19,093 nucleotides of DNA from a virus, in UHGV virus genome UHGV-0806601, one strand, 5' to 3'. Positions 3,459-19,066 of the stretch are shown one piece after another. Position 1 is the first letter of the stretch, and each line of letters starts with the position of its first letter. Made by a program: the position numbers and the translations under genes. The notes beneath the pieces were generated by a model that was given only the letters and a program-made list of their open reading frames with translations, ran no database searches and was not told where the DNA came from.

Positions 3459-3512
3459 ATACTTCATTCCATAAGCAGCACAACACTGACTCTGAAATGA
3501 AGGAACTACACC

Positions 3513-3794
3513 ATGAAAACTAAAGCGCAATTGACTGAAGCCCTGAACGCTGGTACTATCACCCACTCTCGTTACAAAGTAACATTGCAGCAATTTGTTG
3601 GTATGGCCGTCAGAAATGCCAAATTCACCCCAATCTCTTCCCCTGAAAAATTTCCAGTTAAGGCCAGCCAGCCGAAGTTTTCGGTAGTTTGCCAGGGTGA
3701 AGAAATCACCGCTCTGTGGGAATATGATAACATGTATTTTGAATGTTCTGACGGCGTGTTAGCATACCATGTGGAAGGTGAGCATTTGTTCTAA
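3513..3794 (+). CDS. hypothetical protein (93 aa)
   Basis: ATG preceded by AGGAA; no homology recognised. Confidence 0.45.
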   Translation: MKTKAQLTEALNAGTITHSRYKVTLQQFVGMAVRNAKFTPISSPEKFPVKASQPKFSVVCQGEEITALWEYDNMYFECSDGVLAYHVEGEHLF

Positions 3795-3853
3795 ACCTTT
3801 GAACAGGGTATGTTAACCGCATACCCTATCCCCTACAAATAGAGGACTTTATC

Positions 3854-4174
3854 ATGGCTAACAGCATCCCGATTTTAGAAGCGGTCGTAAAGGAGAACCC
3901 TCGTGCGCGCAAATCACGTCGCTGCCTGACCACCAAACTGGATATTCTGAAACAGAAGTTCGGCGACCACAGCGTGTTCACTCGCATTCGCAATGCATTA
4001 AAGGAAGGGCGAACTGAGCTGGAACTATATCGACCGAACGGTTCGACACGCGCGTATCAGACCACTGACGGCTTACTGGAACTGATCCGCCTGAGCGGGA
4101 TGACGATCGAACCTCGTTCGTCAGGCACTCCTCTGTGCTCCCTGTACGTAATCGGCAATCTTGGGGCGCTGTGA
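3854..4174 (+). CDS. hypothetical basic protein (106 aa)
   Basis: ATG preceded by GAGGA. The N-terminus is Arg/Lys-rich (PRARKSRR). Confidence 0.45.
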   Translation: MANSIPILEAVVKENPRARKSRRCLTTKLDILKQKFGDHSVFTRIRNALKEGRTELELYRPNGSTRAYQTTDGLLELIRLSGMTIEPRSSGTPLCSLYVIGNLGAL

Positions 4175-4178
4175 TTCT

Positions 4179-4601
4179 ATGAAGAAGTATATCGTTCTCA
4201 TTACGGGTTCCCGCTCAATCACCGAGCGGGATAAGGTATTCGCCAAGCTGGACGAACTCCTCGATCCTCATGAAGTCTATACGTTGATCGAGGGTGAGGC
4301 CACGGGTGTCGACACGATTTGCCGTGATTGGGCTGAAATCAATTATGTTCATATCACTCCTATGCCAATACCTCCGAGCTATTATGAAAAGTATGGGAAA
4401 GGGATGGGTAACAAACGCAATCAGGATATGTTAGACAAGGCATTGGATCTCGTCAGGCAGACCAAGCTGGAAGTGTATCCGATTGCGATGTGGGATGGTT
4501 CGTCCACTGGCACCCTGGACATGATCAACCGTTGCAAGAAAGCTGGCCTCCCTGTGGATATCACTCTAATGGGTAAGCCGAAGACCAAGCGCCTTTTGTA
4601 A
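4179..4601 (+). CDS. Rossmann-like protein with DprA/Smf-LOG (SLOG)-type motifs
   Basis: IVLITGSRS followed by LIEGEATGVDTICRDWA resembles the DprA/Smf pattern remembered as ..VGSR.. then ..SGLA.GID..AH.. This is motif-level resemblance only. Confidence 0.4.
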   Translation: MKKYIVLITGSRSITERDKVFAKLDELLDPHEVYTLIEGEATGVDTICRDWAEINYVHITPMPIPPSYYEKYGKGMGNKRNQDMLDKALDLVRQTKLEVYPIAMWDGSSTGTLDMINRCKKAGLPVDITLMGKPKTKRLL

Positions 4602-4642
4602 CATACCATAAATAATTTGAGTATACACAGCGGAGATACATC

Positions 4643-4813
4643 ATGTTTGTCGTCATCAATCTGTTCTGCTATATCTTCACGGCGTACTTCTTGGGTGCGG
4701 TAGGGATCGAGACCTACAATGACCTGAAGGATGGGGAATACGCCAACCGAATGGTTTATGTTAAGAAGTTTGTTCGTAAGTTCTGGTCCAACTTCGTTTA
4801 CAAACTACCATGA
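4643..4813 (+). CDS. small predicted membrane protein (56 aa; below the ORF-track length cutoff)
   Basis: ATG at 4643 with GGAGA 6 nt upstream. The N-terminal hydrophobic stretch FVVINLFCYIFTAYFLGAVGI is consistent with one transmembrane helix. Translated by hand. Confidence 0.4.
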   Translation: MFVVINLFCYIFTAYFLGAVGIETYNDLKDGEYANRMVYVKKFVRKFWSNFVYKLP

Positions 4814-4818
4814 TCCCT

Positions 4819-4850
4819 AAATACCCCCATCATCCATGGGGGTATTTTCT
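4819..4850 (+). terminator. strong rho-independent terminator
   Basis: A perfect 12-bp inverted repeat, AAATACCCCCAT (4819-4830) and ATGGGGGTATTT (4836-4847), with loop CATCC, followed by TTCTT. Confidence 0.6.
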
Positions 4851-4851
4851 T

Positions 4852-5580
4852 ATGAACGCACAGATCTATGACGCCCTATCGCAGGGCAACGCCTTTACCA
4901 ATCCTCTCCCGTCCCTCAGCAGCGCCTCACAGGGGTTAATCACCAGTGGTAAGGCGACTACAGCGTCACTGGCTAACACCGGAAATGCGCAGATTCAGGA
5001 AGCGCTGACGGCAGGTGGGTTAACTACAGCCAAACTCAACGAATCTACAGCAATGTTCAACTCAGCCAACGACAGCATCACTACTTTGAACAACTATGGC
5101 TACCAGTCAGTGAACGAGGCATATTCCCGCATCGGTACATCTGTGTCGTATAAGTCCGCCCTGAAGTCTATAGGTCGAGAACCGAACAACTGTGATCTGA
5201 TCAATAATGCATTTGGGGTTATTCAGAACCTCGGCAAACAGTGGATCAACACCATGCAAAGTGTTCTCACAACTATCACAAACAAGATGAATGAGCTGGC
5301 TGAGTTGGTAGCTCAGGGTGTCAGTGCTGGTCTTGATGCTATTCGGGCACTGGCTGCTGAAGTTACTCAAGCCATCGACACTGCTGTCGCATCAGTAGCC
5401 TCTATTGCTCAGGACATCACGAACGGTATTGCAGCAGAGTTAGCCCATATCCAAGACATGGTTGGTAAGTGTCTTAACTTCTCTTTCGCCAACGTGATCT
5501 CAGAGTGGGCGAAAGATATCTGCGCCGGAGGTGTCATCAACAGCATCGGTTCCGATAATCTGAAGAACGCGCTGAAGTAA
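4852..5580 (+). CDS. Ala/Ser/Thr-rich hypothetical protein (242 aa)
   Basis: The ORF-track start at 4810 would place the terminator hairpin inside the coding sequence, so the ATG at 4852 (MNAQIYD...) is preferred. Low-complexity A/S/T/N/G-rich sequence. Confidence 0.5.
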   Translation: MNAQIYDALSQGNAFTNPLPSLSSASQGLITSGKATTASLANTGNAQIQEALTAGGLTTAKLNESTAMFNSANDSITTLNNYGYQSVNEAYSRIGTSVSYKSALKSIGREPNNCDLINNAFGVIQNLGKQWINTMQSVLTTITNKMNELAELVAQGVSAGLDAIRALAAEVTQAIDTAVASVASIAQDITNGIAAELAHIQDMVGKCLNFSFANVISEWAKDICAGGVINSIGSDNLKNALK

Positions 5581-6060: not shown

Positions 6061-6259
6061 ACCCTTGTTACAAGTGGGAACGCTGGCCGACAACGTAACA
6101 GGTACAGTGCGCACTTCTGGGTTCCAGAGTTCGGAAACAGAAATTATTGGCGTGACAAAGATGCGACAGCTCGTAAACAAGAGCATCGAGCATGCCAACA
6201 ACAATCTACTGATCCCGCGCATCAGGGTCACAACATATCTCCACAGTAAAGGTGCTATT

Positions 6260-6760
6260 ATGTCCAACGTACAATTTAAGAACGAAAACCCTAATTTCGC
6301 GGCGTCCGATAAGTGGCGTCTGACCATCGGAGACCTTGTACTCCTAACCCGTAACATCCACGACTTCAGTATACCAGGAGTGTACTCTGAAGGCATCGAT
6401 GGTCCGTCTCCTGGCGACGTACTGGTTTCTATCCCTTCAGAGCGTTTAACCTATGACCCCGTCGTATTTACTTTCGTTATAGACGAGGACTGGAAATCAT
6501 GGTTACAGATCCACCAATGGATTACCAGCAACGTCGGCAAGGATTTGCCTGTCAGCAAGGACATTACCATTGAATTGCTGGATAACCTCAACCGACCGAT
6601 TGGCCTCACTCTCGTGCTGGAGGAAGCCCGTCCGACTGCTCTGGACAACGTACTGGTGGATGTGGACGCGGCTGTACCTCAGCTGGTGACGACAGTGACG
6701 TTCAAGTTCCAACAGCTGGTTCCACTATCTGGTGGGAAGGTGATTGATTCTAATCCATGA
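6260..6760 (+). CDS. hypothetical protein (167 aa)
   Basis: ATG at 6260 preceded by AGGTG. The upstream part of track ORF 5957..6760 overlaps the divergent region and looks non-coding. Confidence 0.5.
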   Translation: MSNVQFKNENPNFAASDKWRLTIGDLVLLTRNIHDFSIPGVYSEGIDGPSPGDVLVSIPSERLTYDPVVFTFVIDEDWKSWLQIHQWITSNVGKDLPVSKDITIELLDNLNRPIGLTLVLEEARPTALDNVLVDVDAAVPQLVTTVTFKFQQLVPLSGGKVIDSNP

Positions 6761-6773
6761 AATACGGTATAAT
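6744..6773 (+). promoter_or_regulatory. candidate sigma70-type promoter upstream of uvsY
   Basis: TTGATT (6744-6749), an 18-nt spacer, then TATAAT (6768-6773), about 30 nt upstream of the uvsY ATG. Confidence 0.3.
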
Positions 6774-6802
6774 TCTATGACATTGACAAGCTGGGATATT
6801 TT

Positions 6803-7255
6803 ATGAAAGAACAACTACAGACAATGGCAACCGAGGACATCATGAACGAACTGGAGCCGCTGATCACAGTGGACCCAGAAGACATGAACCTTGACCAGAT
6901 CTCGCTGAAAATCGGGCGCTCTTGGATGGCTGTGCAGCGGCATTATCTGCGCGAGGGACGTTATCTTGAATTTCTCAACGGGCGCTTCCGCCAGATCGAT
7001 CTCTATCTGCGCCGCTACTATGCAGGGGAGTTACCCCCTAACATCTACGCAGAGCGCCCCCTGAAGGTTCGCCCCCTGAAGTCTGACCTGGATACATGGG
7101 TCAAAGCAGACGATGACTATGTGGAGTTGTCTGTTCTGTTACAAGAACAAAAAGCAAAAGTCAAGTTCATAGAGACTTGTTTGGATCGCCTGAACAAACT
7201 GGGATACGAAGTGAAAAATGCTATTGAGTGGAGAAAATATATTGATGGTGTATAA
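6803..7255 (+). CDS. uvsY: UvsY-like recombination mediator
   Basis: 150 aa, with size and architecture similar to T4 UvsY as remembered (YYAGE... region vs T4 YYSGR...). Lies next to uvsW as in T4. Confidence 0.6.
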   Translation: MKEQLQTMATEDIMNELEPLITVDPEDMNLDQISLKIGRSWMAVQRHYLREGRYLEFLNGRFRQIDLYLRRYYAGELPPNIYAERPLKVRPLKSDLDTWVKADDDYVELSVLLQEQKAKVKFIETCLDRLNKLGYEVKNAIEWRKYIDGV

Positions 7256-9922: not shown

Positions 9923-10104
9923 ATATTACTCTCGTGTGTTGGTTAACATGACATACATATTATTTCGCGTGCATGTTTAGACCAAATAAATTATTTTTGC
10001 TGTTGAATAAAAACTGCTTTCTTGTTGAACAATGGCGTGGTATTATACGAGTTGTGAGCGTTAGCGAACAACGAGTATTTGTTTTATGAGCGAAGCGAAT
10101 AGGA

Positions 10105-10151
10105 TTAATAAAGATTATTATCTTTAATAAAGGTTATTATCTTTAATAAAG
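10105..10151. repeat. tandem direct repeats with 19-nt period
   Basis: TTAATAAAG occurs at 10105, 10124 and 10143. Two near-identical units of about 19 nt, (A/G)TTATTATCTTTAATAAAG, sit at 10114-10132 and 10133-10151. Confidence 0.6.
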
Positions 10152-10154
10152 TCC

Positions 10155-10175
10155 ATAAATGCCGAAGGCATTTAT
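10155..10175. promoter_or_regulatory. perfect 9-bp inverted repeat (ATAAATGCC gaa GGCATTTAT)
   Basis: Hairpin or palindromic protein-binding site immediately after the tandem repeats, in the AT-rich region between the divergent 9922 gene and gp45. Confidence 0.45.
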
Positions 10176-10283
10176 TAATAACGCGTAGCGCAATTTGCCA
10201 CTTGTTCTATAAGCAAAACACAGCGATACTAGATTGCGTCAAACATGACTTGAACCCCCACTATATTTTGAGGATACATACAA

Positions 10284-10953
10284 ATGCAAGAGATCACTCT
10301 CTCCGAACGTACACTTCAGTTGCTGGCCAACTTTGAGACCATCAACCCATCTATCGTTCTGACACCGGGCAAGATGCTGCGCAGTATTAATGATTCTTCT
10401 ACTGTGATCGCCGTGGCGCAGATCGAAGAAGACTTCCCGTTTGAGTTCCCGATTCTGGACCTGACCAAACTTCTGGCCATCCAGCGCCTACCTTCCTTCA
10501 AAGGTGCCAAAGCCGAATTCCATCAGGACTACATCCTGTTGAAAGGCGAAAGTTCTCAGCTGCAATTCTGGCGTTCTGCTAAAGAACTCACGGTTGTCCC
10601 GGCTGATACTATTTGAACTGCCGTCTGTCGACTTTGAAGCGATCATCACTCCAGAGAAGATGAAAGAACTGACCCGCGCCTGCTCTACCCTAGGACATAA
10701 GACTGTGCGTCTGGTTGCTCAGGGTGGCAAAACACGCCTGGTTGCAACCACCACTACCCTGGACAACTCCAACAACTACACTGTTGAGCTGGGCGAAACC
10801 GCGCTGCCGGACTTCGTAATGCCACTGGATGTTGCCAACCTGAAAATGATCGAAGGCAACTACACTCTGCGTGCATGTGCTGATCTACAAATGGTGAACT
10901 TCCAATCATCCGACGCGACGATCAATTACTTCGTCGGCGCACAGATTGAGTAA
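10284..10953 (+). CDS. 45: sliding clamp (gp45 homolog), reading frame interrupted by a one-base frameshift near 10611-10616
   Basis: Two adjacent ORFs (10284-10616 and 10594-10953) together align collinearly with remembered T4 gp45 (FWRSAKELTVVPADTI / ELPSVDFEAIIT vs T4 FWPAADPSTVVAPNKPIPFPVASAVTEI). The second has no ATG (the track uses TTG). The shift maps to the T-run ACTATTTGAACTG. Confidence 0.7.
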
Positions 10954-10969
10954 TCAATCTCCAGCCTGA

Positions 10970-11002
10970 TGCTATAATGTGTGGGCGGGGGAGTTCCCCG
11001 CC
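10970..11002 (+). promoter_or_regulatory. extended -10 element (TGCTATAAT) followed by a GC-rich hairpin between gp45 and gp44
   Basis: TGcTATAAT at 10970-10978; hairpin GGCGGGG (10984-10990), loop GAGTT, CCCCGCC (10996-11002). Function (promoter, attenuator or RNA processing) is not resolved. Confidence 0.3.
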
Positions 11003-11034
11003 TATTTGAAATGATTCTTCTACACGAGGCTGAA

Positions 11035-12024
11035 ATGTCTAATATCACTATCGTTTCCGACCAGTACGCATGGGAAAACAAGTACCGCCCTGACAACCTG
11101 GACGAGATTATCATCCCTCAAGACGTCCGCGCTAAAATCCATGGCTACATCACCAGCGGCAACGGCAACATCCCGTCTATGCTGTTCTACTCTCCTCAGC
11201 CTGGTACTGGCAAGACTACCTCCGCCCTGGCCGTGTGTAATGAAATCGGTTGTAAGCAACCACTGATGATCAACGCATCCCTGGACAACAGCATCGACGT
11301 TATCCGTGACCGCGTGATTCAGTACTCTACTGGTGTGAGTGTATTCGGTGGCCGCAAAGTCGTTATCCTCGACGAAGTAGAGCGTCTGTCTATGGCGGCA
11401 CAGGAGTCGCTGAAGGGTATTGTGGAGAAGGTCTCCAAGAACTGTTCATTCATCTTGACCACCAACGCCAAGCAACGTGTGAACGAACCTCTGCGCTCTC
11501 GTTGCCGTGAAATCGACTTTATCTGGAATGAGACCGAGGCTGATGAGGTCAAACTTCAGTTCATGCGCCGCTGTGCTGAAATCCTTCGCTGCGAAGGTGT
11601 TGAGTATGACCCTCCTGTGTTGGCTGCTATTGTCAAGCGCCATTTCCCTGATAACCGCCGCATCATGGGTGTTCTACAGGATAACGTCACCACTTACGGC
11701 AAGATCGACGAACGTGCACTGGCTGTGTTAAAATCGGCCGATATGGGCATGTTGGTGAATATGTTGAAGGATAATGACTGGGCTGGGATGAAGCAGTGGG
11801 TGACCGACAACCAGAACTATATCACTGAAGACTTCTATTCCCGCTTCTTCCAGTTCTGTGTACCACAGGATAAAGAGAAGCAAATGTTGGTTCAGAATGA
11901 GTCTATCCCTGATCTGGTATGCGTATGTGGTCAGTCTCAGATTGAACACCGTCAAGTCGGCGATGTCTGGCTGCATGCTGTGTTTTTCCTGACCAATGTC
12001 ATGCTCAACATCAAGTGGAAGTGA
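11035..12024 (+). CDS. 44: clamp loader large subunit (gp44 homolog, AAA+ ATPase)
   Basis: KYRP..LDE...P motif and Walker A PQPGTGKTT, matching remembered T4 gp44 (EQKYRPSTIDECILP...SPSPGTGKTT), plus DEVER and SRC motifs. Start placed at the ATG at 11035 with GAGG upstream. Confidence 0.85.
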   Translation: MSNITIVSDQYAWENKYRPDNLDEIIIPQDVRAKIHGYITSGNGNIPSMLFYSPQPGTGKTTSALAVCNEIGCKQPLMINASLDNSIDVIRDRVIQYSTGVSVFGGRKVVILDEVERLSMAAQESLKGIVEKVSKNCSFILTTNAKQRVNEPLRSRCREIDFIWNETEADEVKLQFMRRCAEILRCEGVEYDPPVLAAIVKRHFPDNRRIMGVLQDNVTTYGKIDERALAVLKSADMGMLVNMLKDNDWAGMKQWVTDNQNYITEDFYSRFFQFCVPQDKEKQMLVQNESIPDLVCVCGQSQIEHRQVGDVWLHAVFFLTNVMLNIKWK

Positions 12025-12961: not shown

Positions 12962-13834
12962 ATGACAACTACATTTTCTAAGAACGTGAATCTGAATCTG
13001 GCTTTCGGTAATGCAAAGGGCGACGTCACATCGCCTGACTTTGGTAAGATCCGCAATCAGGCGAAACTGGTGCTGGAAGAGACCCGCGAACTGCTGGAAG
13101 CGGCGTTCTTTGACCATGATGTGAAGGTGGAATTCACTGCAACTCCACGAGTCCTGAAAGAACCCGTTGTTGTCGACATCAAAGACATTATGCGCCAGAT
13201 CATGGATGCCCAGGGCGACATCACCACTGTCAACGACGGTTTGGCTCATATTGCTGGTTTCGACGGTGACGAATGCTTACAGCGCGTGTATGCCTCTAAC
13301 ATGAGCAAGTTCATCCGTAATGAAGACGAAGTTGTGCCTGCACTGGATTACTACTACAACAAAGGCTTCCCACGCGAAAGTCTGCGCATCGAAGGGGAAT
13401 TCCCTCAGGCGTGCATCAAAGTGGTGAACACCATCACCGTCGACGGCAAAGAGTACCCGGCTGGCAAGTTCCTGAAGAACATGGCAACCTTCAAAGAGCC
13501 TGACTTCTCTGATATGTTGACCACCGAGCCTAAGCGCCAGATCACCGAAATCATTCTGACGGGTACGGCCATTCCAGGCCAGCTCGGTTCTAACGAACAC
13601 GCTGGTGTTGCCTTCGCTCCTTTCGATTTTATTGACGAGATCATGGGATACACCAAGATGGGCTTCCAGGCGTTCTCTGGCGAAACAGTCGAGAGCTACA
13701 TTCCCGTGTTTGTTTTCAATGAAGACAACTTCCCAACTCTACCGTTGATCTGGGGTGAATGGAAAGCCAACGTCCGTATCTATGTGGCCAGCCCAGTGCA
13801 ATCATCTATCACCCAACTGACCCGTATCGATTAA
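12962..13834 (+). CDS. hypothetical protein (290 aa) with a possible MazG/HisE-like NTP pyrophosphohydrolase N-terminal domain
   Basis: An EExxExxE helix (LVLEETRELLEAA) followed by an Asp-rich helix (DAQGDITTVNDGLAHIAGF) is reminiscent of all-alpha NTP pyrophosphatases. The C-terminal 150 aa is unassigned. GGAG ribosome-binding site. Confidence 0.45.
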   Translation: MTTTFSKNVNLNLAFGNAKGDVTSPDFGKIRNQAKLVLEETRELLEAAFFDHDVKVEFTATPRVLKEPVVVDIKDIMRQIMDAQGDITTVNDGLAHIAGFDGDECLQRVYASNMSKFIRNEDEVVPALDYYYNKGFPRESLRIEGEFPQACIKVVNTITVDGKEYPAGKFLKNMATFKEPDFSDMLTTEPKRQITEIILTGTAIPGQLGSNEHAGVAFAPFDFIDEIMGYTKMGFQAFSGETVESYIPVFVFNEDNFPTLPLIWGEWKANVRIYVASPVQSSITQLTRID

Positions 13835-13857
13835 GATATACAGTTATTCACTAAACA

Positions 13858-13886
13858 ACAGAGGCTATAATGGCCTCTGTTTTCGT
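13858..13886 (+). terminator. rho-independent terminator
   Basis: Stem ACAGAGGC / GCCTCTGT with a 7-nt loop, followed by TTTTCG. Confidence 0.5.
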
Positions 13887-13902
13887 ATTCTAAGAGGATA
13901 CC

Positions 13903-15126
13903 ATGAAAGATAAAGCCCTAGACGTCCCGTACTGCGGTGTCCGTGAAGAAAAGATAAAGTCGGCCAAACCGGTTCTCAGTCCGACCCATACCCGCCTGTC
14001 TTACGAATGGATGAGCGAGCGCTATAAGATCCACGTCAAGAAGGATGTCCAGCGCCTTCCTGCTCCTTGGACTGATAATCCCATATTACGGCAGGTCAAG
14101 TTCTGTAATGTCCGGAGAGAGCACGACAGGCAGTCTCTCAACCTGATCAACAACATCGTCAACAACGATGCTCTGGGTATGGCCGACAAGATGTTCAACT
14201 GCGTGTTGTTCCGCATGTTCAACCTCTGGGATCCAATCCAGGCTATTGGCGGCGCGATGACGATCAAAGAATTCGCCAAGATCAACCTCGATACAACCCG
14301 CGAACGACTTCAGAAGTTCGAGGCCGACGGTGGTAAGGTATTCACCAATGCCTTCAACACGGGCGGCCTGAAGCAATGCCTGGCTTTCCCTGAGCTGGTT
14401 GTCAACCACAAAGAGCAGCGCTTCGGTGGGATGATGGTGAAAGTGTATCGCGTTGGCCAGGGTATTGTGGACGAGATGGACTACAAGGTCGCCAAGAAGC
14501 TGGTCGAAGAGAATCCTGGTGAATATACCATCGAGGGATGGGAACCGTACATGCCAATGCGTGTCATCCGCTCCCTGAAGGCATTCGTCAACAAGTATCC
14601 AAATTATTTCCATGACCTGCTGCGCCTTGGTACTCCTTTGGAAGTATACCAGCGCATGTACGACGACATCGAAGGGCTTGGTCCATTCTTGGCCTATCAG
14701 ATATGGGTTGACTTCACGTACATGCCGGGTTATCCGTTTAGTGAGAACCACTTCACGGTTGCTGGACCAGGCTGTCGCGCAGGTATTGATCTGCTGTTCC
14801 TGAACAAAGACGGTATGACTCACGAAGAATGCATCTTCTGGCTACGGGATAATCAGGACGCAGTGTACTCCCAATATGGGTATGTTCGCGAGCAATTCTG
14901 GTCGGCCGAAGAGCCTGTAGATCAGTGCATGAACGTTATGCAGCTGGAGAACATGTTCTGTGAACTGAGCAAGTACACCCGCTGTGTTGAGGCTGTACAG
15001 CAAGGTAAAAAACCGCGCGGGAAGGTCAGCTATGACGGCGGTGGGGAATACAAAAAGCGCTGTGATGAAGTCGTGCTCAAACGCGGTTCCGTCAATTTGC
15101 TGGACCGTTTGAAGAAACCTGAATAA
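13903..15126 (+). CDS. hypothetical protein (407 aa) with a helix-hairpin-helix-like motif
   Basis: YDDIEGLGPFLAYQIW fits the HhH signature h-x-x-h-x-G-h-G-x-x-x-A. Strong AGAGGA ribosome-binding site. No T4 homolog recognised. Confidence 0.5.
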   Translation: MKDKALDVPYCGVREEKIKSAKPVLSPTHTRLSYEWMSERYKIHVKKDVQRLPAPWTDNPILRQVKFCNVRREHDRQSLNLINNIVNNDALGMADKMFNCVLFRMFNLWDPIQAIGGAMTIKEFAKINLDTTRERLQKFEADGGKVFTNAFNTGGLKQCLAFPELVVNHKEQRFGGMMVKVYRVGQGIVDEMDYKVAKKLVEENPGEYTIEGWEPYMPMRVIRSLKAFVNKYPNYFHDLLRLGTPLEVYQRMYDDIEGLGPFLAYQIWVDFTYMPGYPFSENHFTVAGPGCRAGIDLLFLNKDGMTHEECIFWLRDNQDAVYSQYGYVREQFWSAEEPVDQCMNVMQLENMFCELSKYTRCVEAVQQGKKPRGKVSYDGGGEYKKRCDEVVLKRGSVNLLDRLKKPE

Positions 15127-15241: not shown

Positions 15242-17260
15242 ATGTCAGATTTTAAGCCCTTCGCAGTAGCTGTCAACAATAACGTGCTGGCCATGTCAGC
15301 AACTGGTCTGTTCATGACCAACATCGATAAAGATGCTCTGTGGGATCTGTATCTGTCTTCTTTCCCTGCTGGCACTAACCCGCTCTACCGTGAGCGTACC
15401 GAGCACGACTGCACCTGCTGTAAACAATTCATCCGTAACATCGGCGGTGTGGTCACCATCGACGCCGACCTGAACGTGATCTCTATCTGGGATAACATTC
15501 AGCTGGGTAACGAATACGACGTTGTCGCTGCGGCGCTGTCAGCGTATGTTAAGCAACACGCAATCGTCGACGTGTACTTCAACGACACCAAGAAAATTGG
15601 TGTTGAGTCGAATCACGAAATGAAAGACGGTATTGTCCGCACCTACAACCACTTCCACACCGACCTGCTGGGCAGCTATGTTCTGCGGGCAGATGCCATC
15701 GCTTCTAAGAAGGGTGAAATCCGCCAGGCGATTGAAGTGTTTGAGCGCGGCCTGCGTGAACTGTCTCTGGAATCGGCTGAAATCGTTCTGGAATTGATCG
15801 ACCAGAATTCTCTGTATCGCGGTGAAGAGCACAAAGCGGCAGTGCAGGCGTTCGTGGTGAACAAGACCATGTACGAACAAACTGCAGAAGAGAAACGCGC
15901 TCTGTGGGCTTGGCGCACTGGCTACCGTGCAAACGGTCATATCCCTCACGGCATTCGTAATACCGTGATTGGCTCTCTGCTGGTAGACCTCAATGAAGGC
16001 CGGGATTTGGAAACCGCCGTGAAGTCCTTTGAAGCCAAAGTCGCCCCGACGAACTACAAGCGCCCAACCGCGCTGGTCACGAAGTCTATGATTGAAAACG
16101 CGCAGAAAGAAGTCGAAGCGCTGGGTCTGACTGATTCACTGGGTCGCCGTTATGCCGTGTATGACGATCTGACCATCAACAACGTTCTGTTTGCCGACCT
16201 GGCAGCACAGAAGAAGATGGACCCGTTTGCTCAGCTGGCGTCTGAAGTGAAGACTCCGACCAAGTCCCTGGACAAGGTTGAAGAGATCACGATCGACGAT
16301 TTCCTGACCAACGTGTTGCCAAAGGCGCATTCCCTGGAAGTGCTGGTCGAAAACTCTCACATTGGCAACCTGATGTCCCTGATCGCTCCGGCTACCGCAG
16401 GCGCTCCTAACCTGTTCAAGTGGAACAACGGCTTCAGCTGGTCGTACAATGGCGAAGTGGCCGACTCTATCAAAGAGCGCGTGAAGACCGCAGGCGGCAA
16501 CGTCGACAGCTTCCTCCGTGTGTCGCTGGCGTGGCATAACAACGACGACCTGGATCTGAGCATGAACGATCCTCTTCACAACCACGTGTATTATCACAAC
16601 CGTCGTTCGGCAACTGGCGCAACCCTGGATATCGACATGAACGGTATGGACGGCATTGATCCCAACCGCCGCCCGGTGGAGAACATCTTCTTCAGCGATG
16701 AACGCAAGCTACGTGATGGTCTGTACGAGTTCTATGTCACTAACTTCAGCCAGCGTGAAACCTGTGATATGGGCTTCGAAATCGAAGTTGAATACAAAGG
16801 CCAGACCAAGCGTTTTTCGCATCCTGGTCTGAAGCACAAAGATCGCACTCTGGCTGTTGTGATTGATGTCCGCGCTGGTCAGGTGGTCAACATCAGTTCT
16901 ACCCTGAAGGACGACGCTCGCTCTCAGGAAATCTGGGGCATCAAGACCTCGGTCTTCCAGAAGGTACAGCTGGTTCTGAACTCACCAAACCATTGGGACG
17001 GTGAGCAGACTGGCAACAAGCACGTGTTCTTCATCCTGGAAGGTTGTGCTAACCCTGTCGGCACCCGTGGCTTCTATAACGAATATCTGAAGCCGGAACT
17101 TGATAAACACCGCAAGGTTTTTGAAATGTTAGGTGGTAAGATTAAAGTACAGCCAAGCACTGAGCAGCTGTCCGGTCTGGGCTTCTCTACCACCCAACGC
17201 AACCACGTGTTCGTGAAGGTGAGCGGTTCGTTCAACCGCACTGTGAAAGTTGTGTTCTAA
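15242..17260 (+). CDS. large hypothetical protein (672 aa)
   Basis: A long ORF with an AGGAAG ribosome-binding site and protein-like composition. Contains an H-D-C-T-C-C cluster near residue 55. No Walker A and no polymerase motifs seen. Confidence 0.6.
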   Translation: MSDFKPFAVAVNNNVLAMSATGLFMTNIDKDALWDLYLSSFPAGTNPLYRERTEHDCTCCKQFIRNIGGVVTIDADLNVISIWDNIQLGNEYDVVAAALSAYVKQHAIVDVYFNDTKKIGVESNHEMKDGIVRTYNHFHTDLLGSYVLRADAIASKKGEIRQAIEVFERGLRELSLESAEIVLELIDQNSLYRGEEHKAAVQAFVVNKTMYEQTAEEKRALWAWRTGYRANGHIPHGIRNTVIGSLLVDLNEGRDLETAVKSFEAKVAPTNYKRPTALVTKSMIENAQKEVEALGLTDSLGRRYAVYDDLTINNVLFADLAAQKKMDPFAQLASEVKTPTKSLDKVEEITIDDFLTNVLPKAHSLEVLVENSHIGNLMSLIAPATAGAPNLFKWNNGFSWSYNGEVADSIKERVKTAGGNVDSFLRVSLAWHNNDDLDLSMNDPLHNHVYYHNRRSATGATLDIDMNGMDGIDPNRRPVENIFFSDERKLRDGLYEFYVTNFSQRETCDMGFEIEVEYKGQTKRFSHPGLKHKDRTLAVVIDVRAGQVVNISSTLKDDARSQEIWGIKTSVFQKVQLVLNSPNHWDGEQTGNKHVFFILEGCANPVGTRGFYNEYLKPELDKHRKVFEMLGGKIKVQPSTEQLSGLGFSTTQRNHVFVKVSGSFNRTVKVVF

Positions 17261-18775: not shown

Positions 18776-19066
18776 ATGTTTCGTTTGAAATTGAACGACC
18801 AAGATGTGTTCTACAAACACTTCACCTTCCCAGGTGGTGAGGAACATATCAAGATCCAAAAGTCTGGTATCCCTATCGGCCACGTTCAGAACGTGGTGAT
18901 TGATGCTCACATCAAATCATCAGCCGACTTCATTGAGCTGGCGCTTCTGGTTAATGCCGTTCGTGGTCTGGGTAACGTGGACCGCCTGACGACATTCCAT
19001 GCATATATCCCGTACTTTCCATCTGCGCCAGCAGTTCTCGGTTACAGTACCAGCCATATTCGATGA
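18776..19066 (+). CDS. ORF resembling the N-terminal domain of ribose-phosphate pyrophosphokinase (PRPP synthetase-like), apparently truncated
   Basis: F.GGE..I.I...(30 aa)..ELALLVNAVRG....RLTTF.AYIPYF parallels the remembered Prs N-domain pattern F.DGE..V.I....ELL.M.DALRRASA.RITAVIPYFGYARQDR. The ORF stops after 96 codons, just before the window end. GAGG ribosome-binding site. Confidence 0.35.
   Translation: MFRLKLNDQDVFYKHFTFPGGEEHIKIQKSGIPIGHVQNVVIDAHIKSSADFIELALLVNAVRGLGNVDRLTTFHAYIPYFPSAPAVLGYSTSHIR

Follow-up and report, generated by a model that had tools for sequence, protein, structure and literature searches.

The stretch of UHGV virus genome UHGV-0806601 analyzed here (19,093 nucleotides, one strand; hereafter the window) contains the T4-like core region of an Ackermannviridae phage, with genes for gp23, UvsY, a PD-(D/E)XK exonuclease, UvsW, the gp45 clamp, gp44/62, and RegA. 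The window DNA is 92–95% identical to Escherichia phage LHE287 and to Shigella and Salmonella Agtrevirus-type phages (among them ChubbyThor, SKML-39, and Ag3), and its source is an Agtrevirus-like Ackermannviridae phage. The target gene is complete, lies on the + strand at positions 13903–15126, and encodes 407 amino acids (aa) from an ATG start to a stop codon at 15124–15126. A Shine-Dalgarno-like AAGAGGA (13892–13898, + strand), read from the sequence, is located 4 nt upstream of the ATG. The gene is the ortholog of gp160 (Vi01_130c) of Salmonella phage ViI and belongs to the Pplase1 or HMUDK_hel family, and is of an already known kind.

Family membership and genomic context

The protein matches the Pfam family PF18723 (HMUDK_hel, “5-hmdU DNA kinase, helical domain”, aGPT-Pplase clade 1, where 5-hmdU is 5-hydroxymethyl-dU) with an E-value of 6e-82 and 275.6 bits against a gathering cut-off of 25. 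The match spans residues 30–366 and profile positions 4–280 of 281, and PF18723 is the only family that Pfam reports for the protein at E up to 1. It also matches PHROG 2396 (E 6e-159), which is listed as of unknown function, and the closest database protein is the homolog in Shigella phage ChubbyThor (97.5% aa identity). The ViI protein Vi01_130c (orf00160, YP_004327501) is 87% identical to the target over 407 of 407 aa without gaps, and the gene order regA, MazG-like gene, target, and orf00158 is identical in ViI and the window. Comparison of three accessions in the table of Lee et al. (2021) with the ViI record confirmed that gpN in the numbering of these authors corresponds to orf000N of the record (gp226 = YP_004327553, gp243 = YP_004327565, and gp247 = YP_004327568). 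Given the gapless identity, the shared gene order, and this numbering, the target is therefore the ortholog of ViI gp160.

Both the family and the fold prediction have been published before, and our analysis confirms the published annotation. In phage ViI, gp160 was listed as aG/PT-PPlase1 among the thymidine-hypermodification genes, was one of five gene lysates that reconstituted 5-(2-aminoethoxy)methyl-dU (5-NeOmdU), and was predicted by Phyre2 to adopt a DNA-glycosylase fold of the helix-hairpin-helix (HhH) type (Lee et al., 2018; PMC5889632). As quoted by Lee et al. (PMC5889632), Iyer et al. (2013) likewise predicted an HhH glycosylase fold. The name aGPT-Pplase1 is already applied to homologs in one GenBank record and in a paper describing the genome of SW16-7, a related phage. 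The sequence-only reading of the gene, which had taken an HhH signature as a sign of a glycosylase-fold, base-acting enzyme with a role in base modification, was correct and is supported by the orthology to gp160 and by the listing of gp160 in the hypermodification gene set, yet it rediscovers a published prediction. Several Kuttervirus records annotate the gp160 homolog as two features or show it flanked by homing endonucleases.

With an E-value limit of 1e-3, a full HMMER scan retrieved 4,471 HMUDK_hel cluster representatives, which are mostly 300–350 aa in length. Most of these hits match in two stretches (roughly profile positions 1–160 and 213–390), which identifies residues ~165–215 of the target (14395–14547, + strand) as a clade-specific insertion that is absent from most family members of 300–350 aa. 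The insertion is also seen as an alignment gap and, in the AlphaFold2 (AF2) secondary structure, comprises a beta-hairpin (residues 178–193) and a helix (residues 194–203).

The HMUDK_hel family occurs fused or adjacent to 5-hmdU DNA kinases. SP10 gp186 is the classic kinase-HMUDK_hel fusion, the 616-aa protein P0123 fuses HMUDK_hel to a HMUD1 kinase, and PaMx11 gp50 (HMUDK_hel) is located directly 3' of the kinase gp49. Vibrio phage K469 and a metagenomic relative encode, in this order, a HMUD2 kinase, an amino-acid:DNA transferase (ADDT), one or two small open reading frames (ORFs), and HMUDK_hel (confirmed by Pfam), and Aeromonas phage phiA8-29 has the same layout based on annotation, gene length, and C-terminal tails. 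A division into two separate kinase-Pplase modules (HMUD1 with HMUDK_hel, and HMUD2 with ADDT) was considered and dropped as unsupported because HMUDK_hel sits with HMUD2 and ADDT in K469, phiA8-29, and the metagenomic K469 relative. A TET-associated glycosyltransferase (TAGT, PF20691) also accompanies the family in two places, a metagenomic contig of T4-like character (loci at 4437–5306 and 10001–11062) and Microbacterium phage Clock (loci at 3484–4359 and 6193–7128). The complete genome of Clock encodes HMUDK_hel, a thymidylate-synthase-like gene, TAGT, and MazG, and neither an ADDT, as searched with a hidden Markov model (HMM) built here, nor a recognizable 5-hmdU DNA kinase was found in it.

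Fold, conserved residues, and C-terminal tail

The segment YDDIEGLGPFLAYQIW (residues 253–268; 14659–14706) lies in an HhH at residues 245–271 (14635–14715, + strand), which was identified from the AF2 model, a pattern match, and alignments. The strict pattern h-x-x-h-x-G-h-G-x-x-x-A occurs only once (residues 253–264) in the 124 six-frame ORFs of the window with at least 60 aa (14,985 aa in total) and arises in 0.44% of shuffles of the target protein; hence, the motif is real and unlikely to be due to chance. The AF2 model, built from a 30-sequence alignment, has a mean predicted local distance difference test score (pLDDT) of 87.3 and a predicted template modeling score of 0.83, and contains a helix at residues 245–255, a hairpin at I256-E-G-L-G260, and a helix at residues 261–271. 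Structure prediction thus bears out the signature that the sequence-only reading had placed at residues 245–260, although this range was slightly off, as the motif spans residues 253–268 with the hairpin at I256–G260. Among 28 members of 20–47% identity, the consensus of the HhH is IxGxGxFLAYQIxVDxTY, in which F262 and Q266 are nearly invariant and D270 is invariant. The second hairpin glycine (G260) is often Ser in the Vibrio and Aeromonas clades.

The protein has an all-alpha, HhH-containing, DNA-glycosylase-like fold and belongs to the glycosylase fold in the broad sense. A Foldseek search of the BFVD with the target model first returned the kinase fusion of SP10 together with several proteins named “Pplase1”, followed by ADDT-domain proteins (E 1e-2, probability 0.99), whereas the comparison with glycosylases that had been proposed as a check gave nothing significant in the PDB, the best weak matches being Ogg glycosylases and QNG1. 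The likeness to glycosylases holds for the HhH fold and not for the sequence. No HhH-GPD or glycosylase model (PF00730 and similar) was matched in Pfam at E up to 1, and neither the single protein nor a 30-sequence profile retrieved anything but chance matches from the PDB sequences (lymphotoxin and NIDM). The Gly/Pro loop (G288-P289-G290-C291; 14764–14775, + strand), located with family alignments and hhalign, reads A-G288-P-G-C291, with a Cys where glycosylases have the catalytic Asp. The GPG of this loop is nearly invariant family-wide. All members of the close clade have C291, in place of which some distant ones carry Ala or Ser. Two acidic residues, D270 and E281, are also conserved, away from the Gly/Pro-Asp position.

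Two further conserved elements were identified from family alignments. The N-terminal block at residues 55–76 (PWT...KFxNVRREHDR; 14065–14130, + strand) contains P55, T57, N69, and D75, which are nearly invariant in the wide-family alignment, and the invariant R72. The loop TNAFNTGGLK (residues 148–157; 14344–14373, + strand) is invariant in the Ackermannviridae-type clade, with A150 nearly invariant family-wide, and is a candidate DNA-intercalating or active-site loop.

The second aGPT-Pplase clade is represented by the ADDT model PF18724, which matches ViI gp247 (197.6 bits) and PaMx11 gp46 (97.1 bits) and does not match the target. BLASTP of the target against ViI gp247 showed no similarity except in the C-terminal tail, and a phmmer search of gp247 against the PDB found nothing. 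A profile comparison of 28 diverse HMUDK_hel sequences with 22 ADDT sequences using hhalign gave a weak alignment (E 7.8e-4, probability only 24.8%), in which three segments correspond. The residues R141-L142-F143-G144-P145-W146...K150 of gp46 are aligned to E257-G-L-G260-P261-F262...Q266 of the target; in the crystal structure 8Z2N, the HhH of gp46 is in contact with the backbone of the DNA (PMC11472151). The gp46 strand F173/D175-P176 is aligned to V286/G288-P289. Finally, E243-T244-I-L-C247-K248 of gp46 is aligned to E349-N350-M-F-C353-E354 (14947–14964, + strand), a putative catalytic motif based on conservation and this alignment, in which Thr is replaced by Asn. In gp46 and Pplase2, E243 and T244 are experimentally established metal ligands and C247 is the cysteine attacking C6 (PMC11472151, PMC13458397).

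Across the 28 members, N350, C353, E354, K357, G288-P289-G290, F262, Q266, D270, R72, and D75 are all invariant or close to it, and E349 is invariant in the close clade only. This pattern is consistent with an active enzyme that has retained the Cys/metal apparatus. In the gp46 enzyme PUGT, K150 binds the amino group of glycine, and in YuA the donor is bound by the corresponding lysines, K159 and K248 (PMC11472151, PMC13458397). The positions of PUGT K150 and K248 are occupied in the target by Q266 and E354, both of which are invariant or nearly so in the family; the acceptor pocket therefore appears to be changed, with Gln and Glu replacing both lysines.

The protein ends in RGSVNLLDRLKKPE. 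A linker at residues 382–397 (15046–15093, + strand), which is unalignable, variable in length, and of low confidence in the AF2 model (pLDDT <50), precedes a short helix at residues 399–402, and the tail S396-VNLLDRLK-K405 (SVNLLDRLKK; 15088–15117, + strand) is, based on tail comparisons, a putative sliding-clamp-binding peptide. The DNA polymerases of ChubbyThor and ViI end in RRVNLLAMMQKKKG and RRVNLLSMMGKKG, respectively, and two ViI modification enzymes end in ...TSVNLMSLLKR (gp247, ADDT) and ...SSVSLLGLMRKA (gp243, HMUD2). In ViI, a scan of the last 16 residues of 1,794 stop-to-stop ORFs found V[NS]L[LM]xx[LM] only in the polymerase, gp160, gp247, gp243, one 70-aa protein, and one spurious ORF. 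The 70-aa protein is the zinc-ribbon-like Vi01_049c, which ends in ...SDKVNLLSLMRK. The motif is absent from ViI gp67 (HMUD1), gp226 (a pyridoxal phosphate [PLP] decarboxylase), and the other replication proteins checked. ChubbyThor has the same distribution of tails as ViI, and the target is the only carrier among 236 ORFs of the window.

Other lineages have tails of their own. In Vibrio phage K469, all four proteins end in (K/R)(K/R)LW (polymerase ARKLW, HMUD2 TKKLW, ADDT TRKLW, and HMUDK_hel TKRLW), and the tails of a third lineage, the metagenomic K469 relative, are SLSGFFGN, NLNAFFS, and KSVFDI. In the T4-like contig, HMUDK_hel (...SDLFDMFT) and TAGT (...TSLFDMF) stand beside a polymerase tail of T4 type (...ASLDFLFG). 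All three enzymes of phiA8-29 end in TK(K/R)LW and its polymerase ends in KKVNVLKFFK, so the match between enzyme and polymerase tails is not universal; strict co-variation of the two, which had been considered, fails in this phage. HMUD2, ADDT, and HMUDK_hel share a lineage-specific tail, which equals the polymerase tail in some lineages (ViI, ChubbyThor, and K469).

The C-terminal tail of T4/RB69 gp43 is a sliding-clamp-binding element. From this role and the polymerase-like tails of the enzymes, we infer that the DNA-level hypermodification enzymes, including the target, may be recruited to the clamp. The peptide of the target has the features looked for in a clamp binder, being located at the extreme C-terminus after a flexible linker and resembling the tail of the cognate polymerase (ChubbyThor and ViI), which suggests that it tethers the enzyme to the sliding clamp. 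In the literature library searched, no paper was found to state that hypermodification enzymes are recruited to the clamp. The polymerase-like tail on three modification enzymes is the new point of this analysis and, with the putative Cys/metal motif, one of its two leads.

Proposed function and alternatives

In our best reading, to which we assign a probability of roughly 60%, the target is a clade 1 aGPT-Pplase that acts as a clamp-tethered, catalytic paralog of ADDT on kinase-activated 5-hydroxymethyl-dU in DNA. As a catalytically active paralog of the amino-acid:DNA transferases (ADDT/Pplase2; ViI gp247 and PaMx11 gp46), it would use the HhH to bind phage DNA that has just been replicated and would flip out the kinase-activated 5-(phospho)hydroxymethyl-dU (5-PmdU). 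A divalent metal would be held on E349 and N350, and Cys353 would attack C6, expelling the phosphate and leaving an exocyclic C5-methylene intermediate. This intermediate may be resolved by an acceptor other than an amino-acid carboxylate, as PUGT lysines 150 and 248 correspond to Gln266 and Glu354 in the target. The favored, unproven product would be thymidine, or another fate for sites that lack the aminoethoxy group. The linker and the SVNLLDRLKK tail probably tether the enzyme to a gp45-type clamp, and the tethered enzyme would work at the replication fork or immediately behind it.

Several observations weigh against this proposal. The link between the target and ADDT is seen at the level of fold only and not by BLASTP, phmmer, or the Pfam ADDT model, and the probability of the hhalign alignment is low. 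E349, N350, and C353, which would line a pocket, are putative catalytic residues assigned from that alignment. Not all family members have C291 and the second hairpin Gly. The clamp tether is likewise read from tail sequences, and the polymerase of phiA8-29 does not share the tail of its enzymes. The kinase, gp247, and the PLP decarboxylase gp226 suffice to make 5-NeOmdU in vitro from 5-hmdU DNA, so gp160 is dispensable in vitro, as is gp55 of phage M6. No biochemical activity of a HMUDK_hel member was reported in the literature surveyed, and the 19-kb window contains no 5-hmdU DNA kinase, ADDT, or polymerase.

A more specific version of the proposal is considerably less probable, though worth stating: HMUDK_hel/Pplase1 may provide the “other” fate of 5-hmdU by using the Cys-C6 and exocyclic-methylene chemistry for reduction to thymidine (or for hydrolysis), on the clamp together with the kinase and ADDT. 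The return of 5-hmdU to thymidine after replication is reportedly a question that dates to the work on phages ΦW-14 and SP10 around 1980. If true, this version would explain the company that the protein keeps with 5-hmdU DNA kinases in every hypermodifying phage, its dispensability for making the hypermodified base, its presence with a thymidylate-synthase-like hydroxymethylase and TAGT where there is no ADDT, and the conversion of hmU to T after replication in ΦW-14- and SP10-type phages. Lee et al. called the conversion of 5-hmdU to thymidine “still unknown”. M6 gp51 with borohydride yields thymidine from 5-PmdU, which makes the conversion chemically plausible.

The same dispensability could also be accommodated, with a rather low probability, by a non-catalytic role in which the protein is a DNA-binding, base-flipping accessory or specificity subunit of the 5-hmdU DNA kinase that offers 5-hmdU in particular sequence contexts to this kinase or to ADDT. 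An association with the kinase is implied by the Pfam name (“kinase helical domain”), the kinase fusions (SP10 gp186 and P0123) and the kinase-adjacent genes of PaMx11 and M6 fit such a subunit, and hypermodification is sequence-specific (TG/TC sites). The kinases, however, phosphorylate DNA in the absence of HMUDK_hel, as does the SP10 kinase domain on its own, and in Clock the family occurs where no recognizable 5-hmdU DNA kinase or ADDT was found. Residues that stay nearly invariant at 20–47% identity, as N350, C353, E354, K357, GPG, and R72/D75 do, are more typical of an active site than of a scaffold, and these residues align with those proven to be catalytic in Pplase2. That alignment, with the shared fold and putative Cys/metal motif, would also fit an enzyme that transfers a different group, possibly a minor or context-specific one, to 5-PmdU from a donor other than serine, which we regard as similarly doubtful. 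SP10 makes glutamyl-thymidine, yet no aG/PT-PPlase paralog was detected in it beyond the fused gp186C (Lee et al., 2018, Table 3; PMC5889632), and a few pocket residues set the donor specificity of Pplase2 (PMC13458397). On the other hand, 5-NeOmdU is the only hypermodified base described for ViI-type phages in the literature surveyed, both donor-pocket lysines of PUGT are replaced in the target, and the family is also found in TAGT glycosyltransferase systems that lack ADDT.

A true HhH DNA glycosylase, which would remove a base such as uracil, a host-type base, or unmodified 5-hmU from the DNA of phage or host, is very improbable and the least likely of these readings, because no glycosylase sequence model matches the protein and a Cys rather than an Asp follows the Gly/Pro loop. 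An acidic residue, E281, does lie ~21 residues after the hairpin. The PDB sequence searches also gave no match, and the closest functionally characterized fold neighbors, the transferase gp46 and the queuosine salvage enzyme QNG1, are not base-excision enzymes; excision of 5-hmU would, moreover, be self-destructive for a genome built from 5-hmdU. The catalytic, clamp-tethered ADDT paralog remains our preferred reading.

As the Pplase1 (gp160) component of the ViI-type thymidine-hypermodification set, the gene belongs to a system that shields phage DNA from restriction enzymes. Its interest lies in the orphan status of a very large family and in the leads given by the Cys/metal motif and the shared tail. 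That three DNA-level modification enzymes share a polymerase-like tail suggests a way in which modification may be coupled to replication, and such coupling would also matter for the use of hypermodification enzymes as DNA-labeling tools.

Surrounding genes and comparison with known systems

The upstream neighbor (12962–13834, + strand) encodes a 290-aa MazG-like nucleotide pyrophosphatase (ViI orf00161), as indicated by synteny and a match to PHROG 2144 (E 1e-131), and no Pfam or PDB sequence match was found for it. This gene is a conserved neighbor of the target in ViI-type phages and may help shape the deoxynucleoside triphosphate pool; by analogy with the dTTPase described for phage 15599, it could clear dTTP or dUTP. 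Between the two genes, a pattern scan and the sequence revealed a terminator-like stem-loop with 11 bp and, after it, a T-rich tract (13857–13881, + strand). The 3-nt loop of this hairpin completes a TATAAT (the loop region reads TATAAT) just 5' of the ribosome-binding site of the target, and a promoter scan of the + strand gave nothing above chance. The downstream ORF (15242–17260; 672 aa, PHROG 1735) is conserved beside gp160 and intact in the window, and no Pfam or PDB sequence match was found for its product; the ViI record has two genes in its place (Vi01_129c and Vi01_128c, both “orf00158”).

Apart from the target, no member of the hypermodification set, such as a dUMP hydroxymethylase, was found within the 19-kb window, which was also not matched by the ADDT HMM. 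ViI carries the set, consisting of the thymidylate-synthase homolog orf00066, gp67, gp243 (HMUD2 by Pfam), gp247 (ADDT by Pfam), and gp226. ChubbyThor has an annotated PLP-dependent enzyme as well as gp26 and gp29, which are presumably HMUD2 and ADDT in view of their tails, lengths, and genomic position.

Three other sites in the window are irregular. The gp45 clamp gene (10284–10953) is split into overlapping ORFs at 10284–10616 and 10594–10953, as one extra T in a run of T at ~10611–10613, relative to the single 222-aa ViI gene, leads to an in-frame TGA; the extra T may reflect an error of sequencing or of the homopolymer run, or the frameshift may be real. A 96-aa ORF near the end of the window (18776–19066) matches only the first 84 of 547 positions of the nicotinamide phosphoribosyltransferase PHROG and may be a truncated, frameshifted, or interrupted gene. 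Directly after the major capsid gene, a 282-aa ORF (1285–2133) has a weak match to GIY-YIG SegE-like proteins (E 1.8e-4), which suggests a homing endonuclease.

Among known systems, the tails of T4/RB69 gp43 and of the enzymes are alike in lying at the extreme C-terminus beyond a flexible linker and in having a short basic or Ser/Thr stretch followed by Leu/Phe/Met/Trp anchors. They differ in that gp43 is a known clamp binder, whereas the Ackermannviridae tails are putative ones likened to it by sequence, and in that the enzyme tails of phiA8-29 differ from the tail of the cognate polymerase. The target is set apart from the HhH-GPD superfamily (EndoIII/NTHL1, AlkA, Ogg, Mag1, and MutY), whose sequence models do not match it, by GPGC in place of the Gly/Pro-Asp signature and by a conserved Cys/Glu/Asn motif that is absent from glycosylases. 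QNG1 acts on a free nucleotide and not on DNA. By its PDB name, it is a queuosine/queuine salvage enzyme, and QNG1/DUF2419 (PDB 7UGK, 7U07) is 9% identical to the target, with no genomic or motif link.

With ADDT (ViI gp247, M6 gp51, and PaMx11 gp46/PUGT; PDB 8Z2M/8Z2N), the target shares the G-P-aromatic motif of the HhH, a putative E-(T/N)-x-x-C motif, which supplies metal ligands and the cysteine nucleophile in ADDT, a genomic association with 5-hmdU DNA kinases, and, in Ackermannviridae, the same type of C-terminal tail. In contrast to ADDT, it has Q266, E354, and G288 at the positions of PUGT K150, K248, and D175, and contains additional invariant N-terminal motifs (PWT, NxRRExDR, and FRxxN) and the 50-residue insertion; ViI gp160 also differs from ADDT in not being required for 5-NeOmdU synthesis in vitro. 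ViI gp160 itself has the same full length (407 aa), the same neighbors (regA and the MazG-like gene), the same Pfam family, and the same C-terminal tail as the target, with no difference of substance, the downstream 672-aa gene being split in the ViI record only.

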